Assembly: GCA_018814875.1 (NCBI GenBank)
Contig: JAHIYH010000031.1
Location: 12,739 to 76,738 of the forward strand
From: Patescibacteria group bacterium
Lineage (GTDB): Bacteria > Patescibacteriota > Gracilibacteria > Peribacterales > Peribacteraceae
Length of the DNA: 64,000 bases
Reading direction: 5' to 3'
In this document: piece after piece, positions 50,109 through 59,616 of the stretch
Layout of the letters: each line of letters starts with the position of its first letter
How positions within the stretch are numbered: the stretch's first letter is position 1
Position numbers and translations under genes: made by a program
The notes under the pieces: model-generated
Told to the model about the DNA's origin: nothing
What the model saw: the letters and a program-made list of their open reading frames with translations, nothing else
Database searches by the model: none

Positions 50109-51359
50109 ATGTCCTTCGTAAAAGATCCATCATTGGCCGGGCAAGGTAGGCTCAATCTAGAGATCGCAGAAAAGCGTATGGAAGCTCTTATGAAAGTTAA
50201 GGAGCGTTTCGAAAAGGAAAAGCCTTTTAAGGGGCTCACGATTGGGATGGCATTGCACGTTACAAAGGAAACAGGTGTTCTTATTCGCACTCTTCAGGCT
50301 GGTGGAGCAAAGGTTGCAATCACAGGATGCAATCCTTTAAGTACTCAAGATGACATCGCTGCAGCACTCGTTGAGGAGGATGTATTGGTGTGGGCATATA
50401 AAGGAGAAAGTGACGAGGATTATTACAAGTTCCTCACTGCGGTCATCGAGACTGAGCCTAATATTACTATTGATGATGGATGTGATCTGGTTACAGAGAT
50501 TCACACCAAACATCCTGGGTTGATCGAAAATATTATTGGAGGATGCGAAGAAACAACCACTGGCATCATTCGCTTGCATGCAATGATCAAAGATGGAGCG
50601 CTCCGCTATCCAATGATTGCTGTGAATGATAATAAGACGAAGCATCTGATGGATAATTATTACGGAACAGGACAATCCACATTCGATGGTATCCTTCGTT
50701 CTACCAATATTCTTGTTGCAGGCAAAACAGTTGTGGTTGCAGGATATGGAAGTTGCGGAAAGGGCTGCGCGATGCGTGCGAAGGGATTGGGTGCACAAGT
50801 AATAGTTACAGAAGTAGATAACTTTGCAGCTTTACAGGCGGCGATGGATGGTCACAGAGTGTTACCTATGACCGAAGCGGCATCATTGGGCGATATTTTT
50901 ATTACAGTCACCGGTGATTTGCATGTTATTCGCATGGAGCACATAGATAAGATGAAAGATGGTGTGGTGCTGTGTAATTCCGGACACTTTGATAATGAGA
51001 TTGATATGACGTCACTTGAGTCGGAGGCAAAACGTAAGCGTCGTGTGCGTCATTACTTAGATGAGTACATGCTCAAGTCTGGCAAAGTAATTTACGTTGC
51101 AGGAGAGGGGAGGTTGGTGAATCTGTCTTCTGCTGAAGGGCATCCAAGTGAAGTTATGAGCCTAAGCTTCTGTGGACAAGCACTTGCATGTGAGTTTTTG
51201 GCAAAGAACAGAGGCAATCTTCTGGTTGATGTGATTACACTTCCTCCAGAAATAGATGATCATATTGCCGAGTTACAATTGAAGGCAATGGGGTTATCTA
51301 TTGATACGCTTACGCCAGAACAAGTGGAATATTTGGGGCAGTGGAAGGAGGGGACGTGA
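50109..51359 (+). CDS. ahcY: Adenosylhomocysteinase
   Basis: LHVTKET, CNPLSTQD, IDDGCD, EETTTG, DNYYGTGQS, GHFDNEI, GRLVNL..AEGHP. Confidence 0.97.
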   Translation: MSFVKDPSLAGQGRLNLEIAEKRMEALMKVKERFEKEKPFKGLTIGMALHVTKETGVLIRTLQAGGAKVAITGCNPLSTQDDIAAALVEEDVLVWAYKGESDEDYYKFLTAVIETEPNITIDDGCDLVTEIHTKHPGLIENIIGGCEETTTGIIRLHAMIKDGALRYPMIAVNDNKTKHLMDNYYGTGQSTFDGILRSTNILVAGKTVVVAGYGSCGKGCAMRAKGLGAQVIVTEVDNFAALQAAMDGHRVLPMTEAASLGDIFITVTGDLHVIRMEHIDKMKDGVVLCNSGHFDNEIDMTSLESEAKRKRRVRHYLDEYMLKSGKVIYVAGEGRLVNLSSAEGHPSEVMSLSFCGQALACEFLAKNRGNLLVDVITLPPEIDDHIAELQLKAMGLSIDTLTPEQVEYLGQWKEGT

Positions 51360-51360
51360 T

Positions 51361-51475
51361 CAACAGTTGACCAGCCTTCGCTAAAGCTACGGCCGGCAGG
51401 CAGTTAACATTTAACAATTAACAGTTAAAAATTAATAACCGCAACCGTAACCGCAACAGCGACGCCGCGTCGCTG
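51361..51475. repeat. Composite repeat: TTAACAG array interrupted by a REP-like element, then an AACCGC array and a GC hairpin
   Basis: caacagttga-ccagccttcgctaaagctacggccggcagg-cagttaacatttaacaattaacagttaa; aaccgcaaccgtaaccgcaac; cagcgacg-ccg-cgtcgctg. Confidence 0.85.
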
Positions 51476-51549
51476 CTTCGTATCTTGGTGATAATTAAAC
51501 ATTCGTTTTGACGGAGTTAAAATGTGAGGCTGTAGCGGTACAGAATACC

Positions 51550-51578
51550 TTGACGATAAGCCAATAACAGCGTAAATT
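51550..51578 (+). promoter_or_regulatory. Candidate sigma70 promoter
   Basis: TTGACG-17 bp-TAAATT upstream of a structured leader. Confidence 0.55.
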
Positions 51579-51862
51579 AACGTGCGTTATGATGCGCACG
51601 TGGTTCATTTATTCGGTCGTTCTATCCTTTCGTAAGACTACGAAAATGGGTCTGGGAATAGTGTGCTAACGTCTAATAATTTCCCAAGTTGACCCCACTC
51701 TGTAGGGGTTCTTGTCTTTGATCTTTAAAAGCATTGTTAAGCAGTAAGCAATCTGTCCTCAAGTTCTTTTTGTGTCAATGGAATCAAGCGGCCGAGCGGT
51801 CGCAACACAAATAGAATTTTCCCCCTGGATGAGGGCAGTATCTATGAAGGAGTGTTCTCGCT

Positions 51863-52084
51863 ATGACTAAGTTGGCGCATGCGGTTTGTTTTGGGAGAGG
51901 CAAAAGAAGCACGGTGTTGGTGAAACCGATTGGAGGTACGTTAATAACTGTCGATGAGGCAGATGACTTCCTCGAAAGTCGGTCAGAGCCTGTACCTGTG
52001 CAACTGTCAGATGAACAGCAGCGTTTCCCAGCGGTTCGACAGCCTTTAAAGGGGCACCCGCGCCGCCTTGCTGGAGTTTTCTAG
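51863..52084 (+). CDS. Small orphan protein (73 aa)
   Basis: AAGGAG SD upstream and a strong hairpin downstream; no recognisable family. Confidence 0.5.
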   Translation: MTKLAHAVCFGRGKRSTVLVKPIGGTLITVDEADDFLESRSEPVPVQLSDEQQRFPAVRQPLKGHPRRLAGVF

Positions 52085-52099
52085 AGTAACTCCTTTCTC

Positions 52100-52145
52100 G
52101 CTGGTCCTCATCGCCTTAAGTGCGGTGAGGACTGGCAACCTTTTC
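52100..52145 (+). terminator. GC-rich hairpin, candidate terminator
   Basis: gctggtcctcatcgc/gcggtgaggactggc stem followed by aacctttt. Confidence 0.6.
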
Positions 52146-52264
52146 GAGTACAGATTGGTTACTGTTTGATCATTTACATCTTTGTTTTAACAATTGGAAA
52201 TCTGTTCTGTCTCTATGGAAGAGGCAAGAGAACAGGTTCAATCACGCTTAAACAGGAGTTTTTC

Positions 52265-52390
52265 ATGTCACGAAAGCGCGACAAGCAAGCGATTGCAGCC
52301 GTTTCCAGCTAAGGAAAGTGCAAGATAGCAAAACAAGCTCTCAAAGATAAGCGCGCTTCCTCTGGTGAAAGAAGGCAAAAGAAGAAGTAG
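52265..52390 (+). pseudogene. Small basic orphan ORF with an internal TAA (or a 15-aa peptide)
   Basis: CAGGAG SD; MSRKRDKQAIAAVSS*GKCKIAKQALKDKRASSGERRQKKK*; hairpin 52407-52440 follows. Confidence 0.4.
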
Positions 52391-52594
52391 TCCACGTTTA
52401 CGTTCTCCAGCTCTCGATGCTCTTGTGTGTCGAGAGCTGGAACTCTTCATTTTAGAGAGTAGATTTTTGGTTGTTCTTTTACATTATTAATTAAATACAT
52501 AAACTGCTCTGTCCTTAGCCCCTAATGGATACGGGACCATGGTTTAGCCATGATTTTTGGAGGCAGAGTATTTTACCCTCGGGAGGCACTACTT

Positions 52595-52864
52595 ATGTGC
52601 AAAGGATTTGTCCCCAGGGCTCGCAAGAGTCCAAGCCGACTCTGTCACAGGTTGACGCGGAAGGCAGCTACACCGATTATTGAAGATGAGGCGAATGGTA
52701 AATTGCCAATTGCAGCTTCAACGGTGTATCCGCCGGAAGTTGAAAACGCGCCACGAAGTCTTCGGGCTGAGGCGCGTGGTAAATTCCGGAAGCAGCAGAA
52801 GAAGAAAGGCAATTCTGCGTTGACCAAGAAGCGGCGTCGAAAACAAGCGGCTTCAACCGCTTAA
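52595..52864 (+). CDS. Small highly basic orphan protein (89 aa)
   Basis: GGAGG SD before ATG 52595, K/R-rich C-terminus, hairpin 52885-52918 downstream. Confidence 0.5.
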   Translation: MCKGFVPRARKSPSRLCHRLTRKAATPIIEDEANGKLPIAASTVYPPEVENAPRSLRAEARGKFRKQQKKKGNSALTKKRRRKQAASTA

Positions 52865-52957
52865 GGGGAAACTCCCAGGATCTAGGTCCCCTGTGGTGCA
52901 TTAGCACTGCGGGGGGCCGCTACTTAAAATCGGGAAGAGCAGTTTGTGTATTACGAG

Positions 52958-53033
52958 AATTGTCTGAAACTAAGATTTACAGAATTAATCCTGTCCATCT
53001 TTTTTAATCTTTTTAATCCTAGTTCAGACAATT
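52958..53033. repeat. Inverted element with AATTGTCTGAA/TTCAGACAATT ends and degenerate 9-bp TTAATCCTG-like units
   Basis: aattgtctgaaactaagatt ... aatcctgtccatcttttttaatctttttaatcctagttcagacaatt. Confidence 0.75.
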
Positions 53034-53058
53034 GACAGCAAAGGGTACAATATGATCA

Positions 53059-54009
53059 ATGGAGAACAATAAAGCTATTGCAGGTCTACTCTGTCAAATC
53101 GCCGCCCTACTCCAAGAGCAGGAGGTGCCCTTTAAGCCTGCGGCATACAGGCGGGCTGCTCAGGTAATAGAAGAACTACCTCGAGATATTTCAACTTATG
53201 GAGATGAGAAGGAACTCAAGAAACTCTCAGGTATTGGTGATGCAATTGCACGTAAAATTATTGAGTACTTAGAAACAGGAAAAATAACTGCACTGGAAAA
53301 TTTACGCATCACTCAAGGTGGAATTCCCGCAGATCTTATGGACGTAGAAGGACTCGGGCCTAAGCGTGTACGTCAGATTCAAGCTGCATTTGGAGTGAAG
53401 ACTGTTGCAGATCTTATAAAAGCTGCAGAGGATGGGAAGCTGAGAACTCTCCCTCGTTTTTCTGAATTGATGGAGAAGAAAGTTTTGGAGAATGCGAAGC
53501 GGGTTAAGGAACGTACAAGGCGATTTCCGCGTGAGGAGGTTAAAGAAGATGTTATCAAGCTTCTGAAGAAGATTGAGGGCGTGGAAGGTGTTGATCAGTG
53601 CAGTGTTGCAGGTTCATATCGTCGCGAAAAAGAAACAGTTGGGGATATAGATATTCTCGTTGTAACTAAGTCACCAAAAGAAGTTTCCGATGCTATCGCT
53701 AGCTTATCTATAGTTCGTGATGTGGTGGCACATGGAGAGCGCAAACTTTCGTTTGATCTAAAGTCAGGATTACGCGTTGATGTTCGGTTTGTCAAAAAAG
53801 ATCAGTGGGGATCGGCACTCCTATATTTCACTGGATCAAAAGAGCACAATATTGCAATGCGTAGAGTAGCAATCAAGAACAGCTGGAAGCTTAATGAATA
53901 CGGACTTTTTGATGGAGATGCTTTGCTTGCGAGTAAGACCGAAGAGGAGATATATAAAAAGCTAAAACTGAGGTTTTTTGCTCCAAAAGAAAGGGGAGGA
54001 AGGTTATAA
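53059..54009 (+). CDS. polX: DNA polymerase X family, lacking the PHP domain
   Basis: AYRRAA, HhH GIG and GLGPK, GSYRR, GDIDIL, RVDVR, YFTGSKEHN, LNEYG. Confidence 0.92.
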   Translation: MENNKAIAGLLCQIAALLQEQEVPFKPAAYRRAAQVIEELPRDISTYGDEKELKKLSGIGDAIARKIIEYLETGKITALENLRITQGGIPADLMDVEGLGPKRVRQIQAAFGVKTVADLIKAAEDGKLRTLPRFSELMEKKVLENAKRVKERTRRFPREEVKEDVIKLLKKIEGVEGVDQCSVAGSYRREKETVGDIDILVVTKSPKEVSDAIASLSIVRDVVAHGERKLSFDLKSGLRVDVRFVKKDQWGSALLYFTGSKEHNIAMRRVAIKNSWKLNEYGLFDGDALLASKTEEEIYKKLKLRFFAPKERGGRL

Positions 54010-55062: not shown

Positions 55063-55152
55063 TGGCGGAGAGAGGGGGATTCGAACCCCCGAGACCCTTT
55101 CAGGTCTACTCGCTTTCCAAGCGAGCGCACTAGGCCACTATGCGATCCCTCC
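55063..55152 (-). tRNA. tRNA-Ser (GGA)
   Basis: GGAGGGA acceptor stem, anticodon arm CTCGC-TTGGAAA-GCGAG, long variable arm, GGTTCGAATCC, encoded CCA. Confidence 0.97.
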
Positions 55153-58850: not shown

Positions 58851-58989
58851 AATAAATGGCCAATAACTAGGGTAAAAGGCCATTGCTCAATTAACAATAT
58901 TCAGTATTGTTAGTACGTTCCTGCAAAGGATAAAAAGAGTAGGAACAGGTCCTGCTCATTCACAATTCTCAATGATGGGAGAGTAGATC

Positions 58990-59616
58990 ATGTTCAAGGC
59001 ATTGAAAAATTTCTGGACACCGGTAGGCAATTTTTTTGTTTGGGGGTTGGAGATACATCGAAGAAGGACTGCGAAAATTTTCCTCAAGAGGTACAAGCCG
59101 ATGTATTATAAGGATCTGCACGCACCTTATTTGCAATTTTATGAATTTCCGCCACGAGTGCAAAAGCTGATTCTCAGATACCTTTATTGTTTCATTGGCA
59201 GTGAGCGTAAGGATAGATACAACTACTGCTGGTGTAGTATGATTAAAATCGTGGAAACAGACGAGCGCCTGAAGCGAAAATGGTGCACTTTTAACGGAGG
59301 TGTCGAAGAATTGAGGAGAGAAGGTTACAGTGTCCACGCAGATATACTTGATCCTCTTGTGCAAAAAGCTGCTGCGAACGGGAGGCTTGAACATCTCAGT
59401 CTCCTGTACGGTCCCAAGCTTTCGCATCATCTTCTGCGCACATGCATGGAAGCAGCACGTACGAAACGAGACATGGAAGTAGCACTCGAATGTGCACAGA
59501 TGCTCAGAGATTATCAAGTGATTGCGGAAATACTTTCAATTTCGGGTACACCGCATCAGATGATCACGGCGCAGCTCTTCTTGGAAGGACGAGTATCGGA
59601 GGAAGAACTTCTGTGA
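58990..59616 (+). CDS. Orphan hypothetical protein (208 aa)
   Basis: Purine-rich SD-like GGGAGAG upstream and two hairpins downstream; no family recognised. Confidence 0.6.
   Translation: MFKALKNFWTPVGNFFVWGLEIHRRRTAKIFLKRYKPMYYKDLHAPYLQFYEFPPRVQKLILRYLYCFIGSERKDRYNYCWCSMIKIVETDERLKRKWCTFNGGVEELRREGYSVHADILDPLVQKAAANGRLEHLSLLYGPKLSHHLLRTCMEAARTKRDMEVALECAQMLRDYQVIAEILSISGTPHQMITAQLFLEGRVSEEELL

Follow-up and report, generated by a model that had tools for sequence, protein, structure and literature searches.

Tandem boxA-like modules with long-range helices and Shine-Dalgarno-led small open reading frames downstream of ahcY in the Peribacteraceae

Which kind of genetic element fills the 1.7-kb gap between ahcY (S-adenosylhomocysteine hydrolase; 50109-51359, plus strand) and a PolX-like polymerase gene (53059-54009, plus strand) in a Patescibacteria group bacterium of the family Peribacteraceae? 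The gap lies within the 64,000 nucleotides analyzed here (the window; positions 12739-76738 of contig JAHIYH010000031.1, here C23, assembly GCA_018814875.1), which are part of a genome (G000) of 1.42 Mb in 70 contigs that is rated 98.8% complete. The titles of the 80 closest ahcY loci point to the Peregrinibacteria/Peribacteraceae, a candidate-phyla lineage (Patescibacteria, candidate phyla radiation). A predicted promoter and a structured leader lie in the gap, followed by a tandem of three modules, each composed, in this order, of a boxA-like 12-mer, a hairpin, a strong Shine-Dalgarno (SD) sequence with ATG, a short open reading frame (ORF) and a strong 3' hairpin. We favor the reading, at a probability of roughly one half, that this array is a single transcription unit on the plan of an rRNA operon, which carries small protein genes and is vertically inherited within the Peribacteraceae. 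Its features are listed below, with energies and structures from minimum free energy (MFE) folds and z-scores of local stems obtained by folding each stem alone against 100 shuffles; G001 and G003 are genomes of the same genus.

51550-51578, plus strand: promoter-like site with -35 TTGACG, a 17-nt spacer and -10 TAAATT, from a consensus scan; both hexamers kept in G001 and G003
51580-51690, plus strand: structured leader; several hairpins in the MFE fold, beginning with the one at 51580-51601
51691-51710, plus strand: boxB-like G+C hairpin immediately 5' of boxA-1, from the consensus scan and the MFE fold
51719-51730, plus strand: boxA-1, TGATCTTTAAAA, with a GCATTG extension to 51736; profile E 2e-7; kept in G001 and G003
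51739-51760, plus strand: 5' strand of long-range helix 1, containing the conserved AATCTGTCC foot; inverted repeat, MFE fold
51753-51838, plus strand: local long hairpin 1, between helix strand and SD; MFE -32.7 kcal/mol, z -3.8
51847-51852, plus strand: SD-1, AAGGAG
51863-52084, plus strand: ORF1, 73 aa, pI 9.6, with an acidic middle
~52099-52137, plus strand: 3' hairpin 1; inverted repeat; kept in G001
52146-52167, plus strand: 3' strand of long-range helix 1, abutting boxA-2; inverted repeat, MFE fold; kept in G001
52167-52178, plus strand: boxA-2, TGATCATTTACA; profile E 5.9e-6; kept in G001 and G003
52202-52235, plus strand: local hairpin 2; MFE -15.1 kcal/mol, z -2.7
52253-52258, plus strand: SD-2, CAGGAG
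52265-52312, plus strand: ORF2, 15 aa, pI 11.0, ending with TAA at 52310-52312
52406-52441, plus strand: 3' hairpin 2, 15 pairs and a T-rich tail, the sole terminator-like one in the window
52472-52483, plus strand: boxA-3, TGTTCTTTTACA; profile E 6.8e-5
52494-52510, plus strand: 5' strand of long-range helix 3; inverted repeat, MFE and centroid folds
52505-52570, plus strand: local hairpin 3; MFE -22.3 kcal/mol, z -2.2
52581-52586, plus strand: SD-3, GGGAGG
52595-52864, plus strand: ORF3, 89 aa, pI 11.4, net charge +18
52885-52918, plus strand: 3' hairpin 3, without U-tract
52936-52952, plus strand: closing 3' strand of long-range helix 3, where the array ends; inverted repeat, fold

A long-range helix encloses module 1 and another one module 3, in each case with the local hairpin, the SD sequence, the ORF and the 3' hairpin inside. 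In helix 1, positions 51739-51760 are 86% complementary over 22 nt to 52146-52167, with a duplex energy of -28.6 kcal/mol compared to a non-cognate mean of -12.8; in helix 3, positions 52494-52510 are 94% complementary over 17 nt to 52936-52952. The 5' strands begin a few bases after the boxA-like 12-mer and the first 3' strand ends exactly at the start of the next 12-mer. For 17 pairs of consecutive modules from the window and its relatives, the 40 nt after one boxA were compared with the 40 nt before the following boxA. The mean duplex energy was -23.6 kcal/mol for cognate arms vs. -13.7 (sd 4.8) for non-cognate arms, the cognate arm ranked first in 10 pairs and second or better in 13, and none of 20,000 permutations reached the observed cognate mean, whether the close relative G001 was included or left out. 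The exceptions are four pairs: module 2 of the window, the second of locus L031, L060, and L059, in which the arm lies, as judged by eye, beyond the 40 nt compared. Complementary flanking strands and covariation come together in modules 1 and 3, as in a leader-trailer helix; the enclosed unit is not an rRNA. Changes that preserve pairing are also seen by eye in local hairpin 1 (GCGGCC/GGTCGC in G000 vs. GTGGCC/GGTCAC in G001). At the other end of the modules, the 75 nt after the stop codon fold with -29.1 kcal/mol (z -4.2) for ORF1 and -34.7 kcal/mol (z -3.1) for ORF3, and among the 3' structures that follow module stops in the window and its relatives the median z is -4.6, with 36 of 42 below -2.

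The three-module pattern exceeds chance. The degenerate 12-mer TGNTCHTTNAMA has six matches in the window compared to 1.83 +/- 1.41 in shuffles, and three of the six share one strand and fall inside a stretch of 765 nt. A profile made from 30 module heads, including the three of the window, retrieved the three modules and one weak boxA-only match from the 1.42-Mb genome. Folding the region in two halves, against 20 shuffles each, gave z-scores of -4.6 and -7.5, and both long-range helices are present in the MFE folds. A first-pass annotation of the sequence had already described three tandem modules with 12-mers, stems, SDs, ORFs and closing hairpins, and we find each of these where it was placed. 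The 12-mers, for which it had considered a background frequency, cluster far above background in the shuffles as well as in the genome-wide profile search, and the stems that it had described are conserved in kind, with covarying long-range arms.

Are the 12-mers boxA elements? The organism's own 16S leader, found by a motif scan on the minus strand at the start of C23, offers the closest comparison. Its promoter (CTTGACC-17-TACAAT), which resembles the promoter-like site of the array, is followed ~170 nt downstream by AGCTCTTTCACACCATCGCAGAG, and its rrn boxA reads AGCTCTTTCACA, then CCATCG. In five rrn leaders of the family the motif is GCTC[CTA]TTCACAGCATCG, and one leader, L101, has the GATC variant GATCTTTCACAGCATCG. 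Compared to AGCTCTTTCACA, the 12-mers of boxA-1, boxA-2 and boxA-3 match at 8, 8 and 9 of 12 positions, with TC and the following T kept. A GCATYG extension is common to module 1 and its orthologues (TTGGTCTTTGAAAGCATCG in G003) and resembles the (G/C)CATCG that follows the rrn boxA. Furthermore, boxA-1 lies ~140 nt downstream of the conserved predicted promoter and is followed by structured RNA, and a CCCC...GGGG hairpin ahead of the first boxA is also visible by eye in L014, L015, L016, L019 and L122. In L098, a relative, the complementarity of the 16S leader to the trailer starts inside boxA and extends downstream from there, the same geometry as in the modules. These likenesses support the 12-mers as credible boxA elements, and the genome encodes NusB and NusA; the boxA reading of the first-pass annotation is thereby supported. 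The 16S gene and the array share a contig, ~50 kb apart. On the minus strand of C23:1-1000, the leader (promoter, hairpins, boxA) is followed by the 5' ~590 nt of 16S with an apparent insertion of ~100 nt near the 5' end, the 3' end of the gene being absent from the assembly; a search of the genome with the family RF00177 gave no 16S match, though the motif scan found leader and 5' 16S.

The 12-mers could also be taken as -35 elements (TTTACA) of internal promoters, which would make each module a transcription unit of its own. A consensus scan indeed lists TTTACA-16-TAAACT at 52478-52505, and TT(T/C)ACA lies inside the 12-mer. However, no -10 (TAnnnT) is conserved at a constant spacing, 4-11 gap columns have to be placed between the 12-mer and the next conserved block when the 36 heads are aligned, the conserved TGNTC half falls outside any -35, and the same motif sits ~170 nt downstream of the promoter in the organism's own 16S leader. 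We regard internal promoters as very improbable.

With boxA-like motifs and long-range helices at hand, the array can be compared to an rRNA operon. Leader and spacer of such an operon bring together boxB, boxA and boxC, on which the rrn antitermination complex (NusB/E/A/G, SuhB) acts. In E. coli, as described in PMC10250234, leader-trailer helices flank each rRNA, carry boxC in the 5' strand and are cut by RNase III, and the boxA complex aids 30S biogenesis. The array shares with an rRNA operon the promoter, the leader hairpins, a hairpin followed by boxA, and a boxA that resembles the organism's own. The 5' helix strand directly follows boxA and contains a conserved sequence, like boxC in the helix hLT as depicted in that source, and the 3' strand comes after the enclosed product, is followed by the next boxA and covaries with its partner. 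In contrast to an rRNA operon, the modules enclose a unit of 300-450 nt with SD, ATG and short ORF instead of rRNA, this unit is repeated 1-5 times, and the boxA core is GATC/GTTC instead of GCTC.

Two boxA-like sites ahead of other genes were noticed as well. At 58953-58992 of the window lies the intergenic TGCTCATTCACA, which is nearer to the rrn boxA than the module boxAs are; 24 nt on, GGGAG and 8 nt precede the ATG of a 208-aa ORF without Pfam family. The first-pass annotation had suggested scanning the genome with the organism's rrn boxA for an enrichment before orphan ORFs; across the genome, an SD-led ORF follows 6 of 34 strict boxA matches compared to 3.3% of random sites, and 4 of 31 (p 0.019) once this locus is excluded. 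At C43:2590-2710, a promoter-like TTGACA-17-TATGTT is followed by TTGATCATTCAAAGCATCG, a boxA with extension (C43:2632) very similar to module 1, and then by AGGAG and the ATG of a 464-aa membrane-protein-like ORF. A different, dispersed element with a boxA-like core, TTTTTTGATCGTTCAAAAAAGAATRAA, occurs in more than 10 copies in the genome (among them C43:9105, C43:16346, C45:15310 and C70:4864).

How widespread is the array, and how did it come to its place? The order ahcY, gap, polX is retained in G001 and G003. Within the genus the DNA alignment is limited to promoter, leader, boxA-1 and hairpin 1 (78% identity, over window positions 51520-51853 in G001 and 51529-51721 in G003) and to 3' hairpin 1, 3' strand and boxA-2 (81%), and the ORF bodies cannot be aligned. 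Across Peribacteria, polX was found downstream of ahcY in 41 of 80 loci, counted within 4 kb of downstream DNA per locus, with gaps of 531-3585 nt. Similar boxA-like motifs appear in the gaps, frequently as two or three copies in one gap, in the order 12-mer, 15-25 nt, conserved AAYCTGYTCT, hairpin, GGAGG-type SD and ATG. The 30-head profile, applied to the 80 ahcY loci (672 kb, of which the gaps make up 22% of bases), gave 40 sites on the plus strand of the downstream gap, 13 of them non-seed, and one elsewhere, counts to be read with the facts that the seeds come from the loci where most matches were counted and that genomes which are related cannot be counted as independent. With a covariance model built from 36 heads, matches were obtained in 49 of 121 Peribacteraceae genomes (E<=0.01), mostly 1-3 per genome, clustered on the same strand and 300-650 nt apart, and outside the family single matches in 4 of 127 genomes of the class (E<=0.001). 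In the family, arrays thus comprise 1-5 modules, usually in one cluster per genome and most often at ahcY-polX; among 18 match regions inspected, 11 adjoin ahcY and 7 lie elsewhere. One of the arrays away from ahcY is L122 (G090:C3:986000-991500, minus strand), which has five tandem modules beside cysS, an acidic first ORF (41 aa, net charge -8) and basic later ORFs.

The first-pass annotation had read the modules as separately acquired small-gene cassettes, transcribed through their terminators by classical Nus antitermination. The boxA likeness, the hairpin after each ORF, one of them terminator-like (52406-52441), and the orphan nature of the ORFs would fit this idea. However, the array occupies the same chromosomal position in many genera, its GC content (0.45-0.47 in the gap) is comparable to that of the neighboring DNA, and the modules of one genome resemble each other. 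Because of the shared ahcY-polX position, the unremarkable GC content and the likeness of modules within a genome, the array appears to be a vertically inherited, family-wide type with local duplication and a preferred, non-exclusive location, and separate acquisition is not supported. Neither of the flanking genes, ahcY and the PolX-like gene, is an integrase, and the gap holds no ORF of at least 100 aa; a search for attC core sites was not part of this. Integron cassette arrays are similar in their tandem, short, promoter-less orphan ORFs separated by imperfect inverted repeats. Unlike in such arrays, no integrase adjoins, the inverted repeats form covarying pairs around the ORF within a single RNA strand, every unit comes with an SD and a boxA, and the position is fixed across genera. 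Taken as a whole, acquired cassettes with antitermination are improbable, since Rho was not found either and a T-rich tail follows 1 of 42 3' hairpins. In blastn against the own genome, the core (51490-52950) has no second copy and only its flanks match dispersed repeats. These gap edges (51360-51485 and 52955-53050) consist of short dispersed repeats of the TTAACAGTTAACAATTAAC and AATCCTGTCCATCTTTTTTAATC types, present on many contigs and in relatives, and a 31-mer at ~51371-51401 is found again, with 94-97% identity, in genomes from further families of the class.

Do the modules carry genes? An SD (GGAG), 3-9 nt and an ATG are present in 48 of 59 modules, at a median position of 105 nt after the module head; shuffles give 7.4 +/- 2.5, and on the reverse complement the count is 5 of 59. 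SD and ATG are hence a conserved, positioned component of the module. The frame that the SD sets is the longest open frame in 27 of the 48 modules (binomial p 9e-4), with a median open length of 51 codons vs. 13 and 21.5 in the other frames. In arrays of at least two modules, the first ORFs have a mean net charge of 0.017 per residue, with 5 of 11 at or below zero, compared to 0.195 and 2 of 17 for later ORFs (Mann-Whitney p 0.009, for genomes that are kin and not independent). Among the 21 module ORFs compared with Pfam at E up to 1, nothing rose above the cut-off, with sub-threshold zf-C2H2 or zinc-ribbon matches for four ORFs of relatives, and a CxxC...H...H/C pattern is seen in several ORFs of relatives. 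The predicted products are small, fast-evolving proteins, of which the first in an array is mostly acidic or neutral and the later ones are Arg/Lys-rich, and they probably bind nucleic acids. ORF2 deserves a separate look. Beyond its TAA, the frame has 25 further open, mostly basic codons up to a stop at 52388-52390, so that the extended frame would end ~16 nt before the hairpin at 52406, much like ORF1 and ORF3 relative to their own hairpins. A nonsense codon therefore seems to interrupt ORF2; it may be a recent mutation or subject to read-through.

Several points, beside the kinship of profile seeds and counted loci, weigh against our favored reading. The agreement with the rrn boxA is limited to 8-9 of 12 positions, with A or T for the first C of GCTC (GATC/GTTC), and binding of NusB/E to the 12-mers is our assumption. 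A search of public sequencing runs listed the stretch for no RNA run and for two DNA runs, which may be its source. No long-range helix could be made out convincingly for module 2, whose arms give -13.8 kcal/mol (rank 6 of 17). A CTGYYC foot takes part in both the helix strand and the local hairpin of modules 1 and 3, the foot CTGCTCT of hairpin 3 overlapping the strand of helix 3, and the two pairings are therefore mutually exclusive, which may leave room for a switch. ORF2 is cut to 15 codons. The ORFs are not conserved within the genus (BLASTP E 0.49 for one pair, no alignment for another), and an all-against-all BLASTP of 2,048 gap ORFs from 80 loci gave no cluster with a window ORF. Finally, the basic bias is only partly frame-specific: the SD frame has a net charge of 0.16 per residue, and the two alternative frames have 0.12 (p 0.28) and 0.06 (p 0.03). 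A MAFFT alignment of the first-module ORFs from four genomes of the genus hints at an acidic FDEE-like patch; we do not claim homology, because pairwise BLASTP was not significant.

Some of these points would suit an array of structured non-coding RNAs, in which stable RNAs of 300-450 nt are perhaps excised at the helices and the ORFs are incidental or mere spacers. The ORF bodies are the least conserved parts, and within the genus only leader, boxAs, arms and hairpins align; ORF1 and ORF3 are without relatives, retrieving only themselves among 5.8 billion protein clusters, and ORF3 has no usable match in a protein atlas. The weakly frame-specific basic bias, the premature stop in ORF2 and the strong folding throughout point in the same direction. 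However, the SD with ATG is conserved and positioned on the sense strand (48 of 59 vs. 5 of 59 for the reverse complement), it is kept in a genome that otherwise does not use SDs, and the frame that it sets tends to be the open one (27 of 48, median 51 codons). The module interior shows no conserved RNA sequence. A search of Rfam over the window at gathering thresholds returned tRNA-Ser (55066-55152) alone, and between 51300 and 53100 at E up to 10 only chance-level matches, with no rRNA or other Rfam family inside the modules; no tRNA or tmRNA is predicted within the array region. Overall, we consider an array of non-coding RNAs unlikely.

The SD sequences stand out against the translation signals of the host. 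For 774 host ORFs of at least 200 aa, a 4-mer SD at -18 to -4 is present in 8% compared to 9% in a control window, and a 5-mer SD in 1% compared to 1%; the SD-less host genes of the first-pass annotation are thereby confirmed. Since host genes have no SD enrichment, the module ORFs appear to be among the few SD-led ORFs of the genome. Upstream of host starts, G is depleted and -10-like words (ATAAT, TACAA) are enriched, and thus many host mRNAs are probably leaderless. At the start of polX (53030-53061), for instance, TTGACA is followed by TACAAT 7 nt before the ATG. Among the few other ORFs with strong SDs are a CsrA-like 73-aa protein, as judged by eye, and a 51-aa basic CxxC...CxxC protein (C68:21398 and C24:6001). 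The anti-SD is present in the 16S of a relative. SD-blind Bacteroidia might serve as a comparison, as the rare strong-SD rpsU/bS21 is translated there by a special ribosome pool, according to PMC9976891, PMC13000453 and PMC7797042. Similar are the genes without SD, the few small basic-protein ORFs with a strong SD and the anti-SD in the 16S of a relative. Different are the lack of any sign of SD-blind ribosomes in our data and a bS21-like gene (C43:58171-58317) that has no SD, for which reason we keep the comparison as a lead only. The module ORFs themselves are not bS21, and Pfam finds nothing for them.

How might such an array work? A sigma-70-type promoter would drive a structured leader, a boxB-like hairpin and the tandem modules, of which this genome has three and relatives have 1-5. 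Every module would present, in this order, boxA, the helix 5' strand with the AAYCTGYTCT foot at its end, a local hairpin, SD and ATG, the ORF, the 3' hairpin and the helix 3' strand, with the next boxA directly after the 3' strand of the preceding module. NusB/NusE would bind boxA in the nascent RNA and remain with RNA polymerase, as in rrn transcription. Through the resulting loop the 5' strand would stay close to the RNA exit while polymerase covers the 300-450 nt up to the 3' strand, and the helix would then close as in a pre-16S leader-trailer helix. RNase III may cut the helices and release hairpin-capped, stable single-gene mRNAs, which would be translated through SD pairing in a genome otherwise SD-less and often leaderless. 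The parts for such a process are encoded: NusB (C24:23080-23448), NusA (C29), three genes of the inositol-monophosphatase family as SuhB candidates, and RNase III (C24:23884-24270). The genes for NusB (plus strand) and RNase III (minus strand) are convergent neighbors at C24:23080-24270.

In the early operon of phage T7, RNase III sites between cistrons are local hairpins, and boxA is absent. Similar to this operon, the array would yield one transcript with several cistrons, from which cuts in double-stranded RNA would produce stable, hairpin-ended single-gene mRNAs; the module helices, in contrast, enclose a whole cistron and the modules have boxA.

Does boxA act here by antitermination? Rho was not detected with Pfam Rho_RNA_bind and TIGR00767 in the genome rated 98.8% complete. 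By a rough measure, at least five T in the 10 nt after the structure, 1 of 42 3' hairpins has a T-rich tail, and a G+C stem with U-run does not follow each ORF, the one at 52406-52441 alone qualifying in the window. Because of both observations, we infer that the boxAs serve mainly as handles, in a chaperone or looping role during helix closure, and antitermination is probably not their main point. The read-through of terminators proposed in the first-pass annotation is weakened accordingly, and its boxA likeness stands. In the view given in PMC5725501, Nus factors loop out the RNA that lies between boxA and the polymerase, and boxA also acts at protein genes. At the non-rRNA targets reported there (suhB and others; Baniulyte et al., 2017), a single boxA near the SD represses translation and promotes Rho termination. 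Such targets share with the modules a boxA upstream of a protein gene with SD, and so do the two further boxA and SD genes of this genome (window 58953, C43:2632). They differ in that the module boxA lies ~100 nt from the SD, heads a long-range helix and occurs in tandem, and in that Rho was not found here.

One might also think of self-regulation in the manner of phage lambda N, in which an Arg-rich peptide would bind its own module hairpin beside boxA and, with Nus factors, control its own translation or downstream transcription. The combination of boxA, hairpins, structured leader and a small Arg/Lys-rich ORF corresponds to the pL-nutL-N layout, for which PMC5725501 describes a structured, RNase III-sensitive leader that separates nut from the SD and affects translation. 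Both have boxA and a hairpin upstream of a small arginine-rich protein gene behind a long structured leader, and peptides and hairpins of the array both change fast between genomes. However, the ORFs have no sequence likeness to N proteins or any Pfam family, those of first modules are often acidic, and with the boxB-like hairpin upstream of boxA the order of the two is that of rrn and not that of nut. The array is, moreover, chromosomal and syntenic, has several modules and adjoins no phage genes. An N-like circuit is a long shot. Returning to the rRNA-operon plan, one might speculate further that the modules are mRNAs in rRNA clothing, which borrow an rrn-type promoter, a boxA/Nus chaperone, the leader-trailer helix and RNase III, and which would be translated from the only strong SD sites of a largely leaderless genome, so that their output would follow rRNA synthesis and depend on a special kind of translation initiation. 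The products, short acidic and Arg/Lys-rich proteins, some with zinc knuckles, would then be lineage-specific ribosome- or RNA-associated factors or N-like peptides that act on the hairpins of their own modules. This extension is tentative, and we hold it to be doubtful.

In the literature searched on boxA, Shine-Dalgarno sequences and leaderless Patescibacteria, we found no prior description of boxA arrays of this type. The text of a Peribacteria genome paper, taken without its supplementary gene tables (PMC4736985), contains neither 'intergenic' nor 'small protein' nor 'Shine'. New here are the long-range helices, the boxA of the organism's own 16S leader, the family-wide arrays, and SD and ATG as parts of a module.

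What does the array mean for the Peribacteraceae? Gene callers miss or mis-call the module ORFs, and the seemingly empty gaps of 1-3.5 kb after ahcY in this family are explained by it. The ORFs are unannotated, predicted small proteins with strong SDs, which bears on translation start in this lineage and on the purpose of its retained anti-SD. Complexes of boxA and Nus factors and leader-trailer helices are regarded as rRNA-making devices, with few single-gene regulatory exceptions. In the arrays, the whole design for making rRNA was seemingly copied onto tandem small-protein genes and retained across a candidate-phyla family. If true, this would provide a natural test of the boxA complex as a device for co-transcriptional RNA folding rather than an anti-Rho device.

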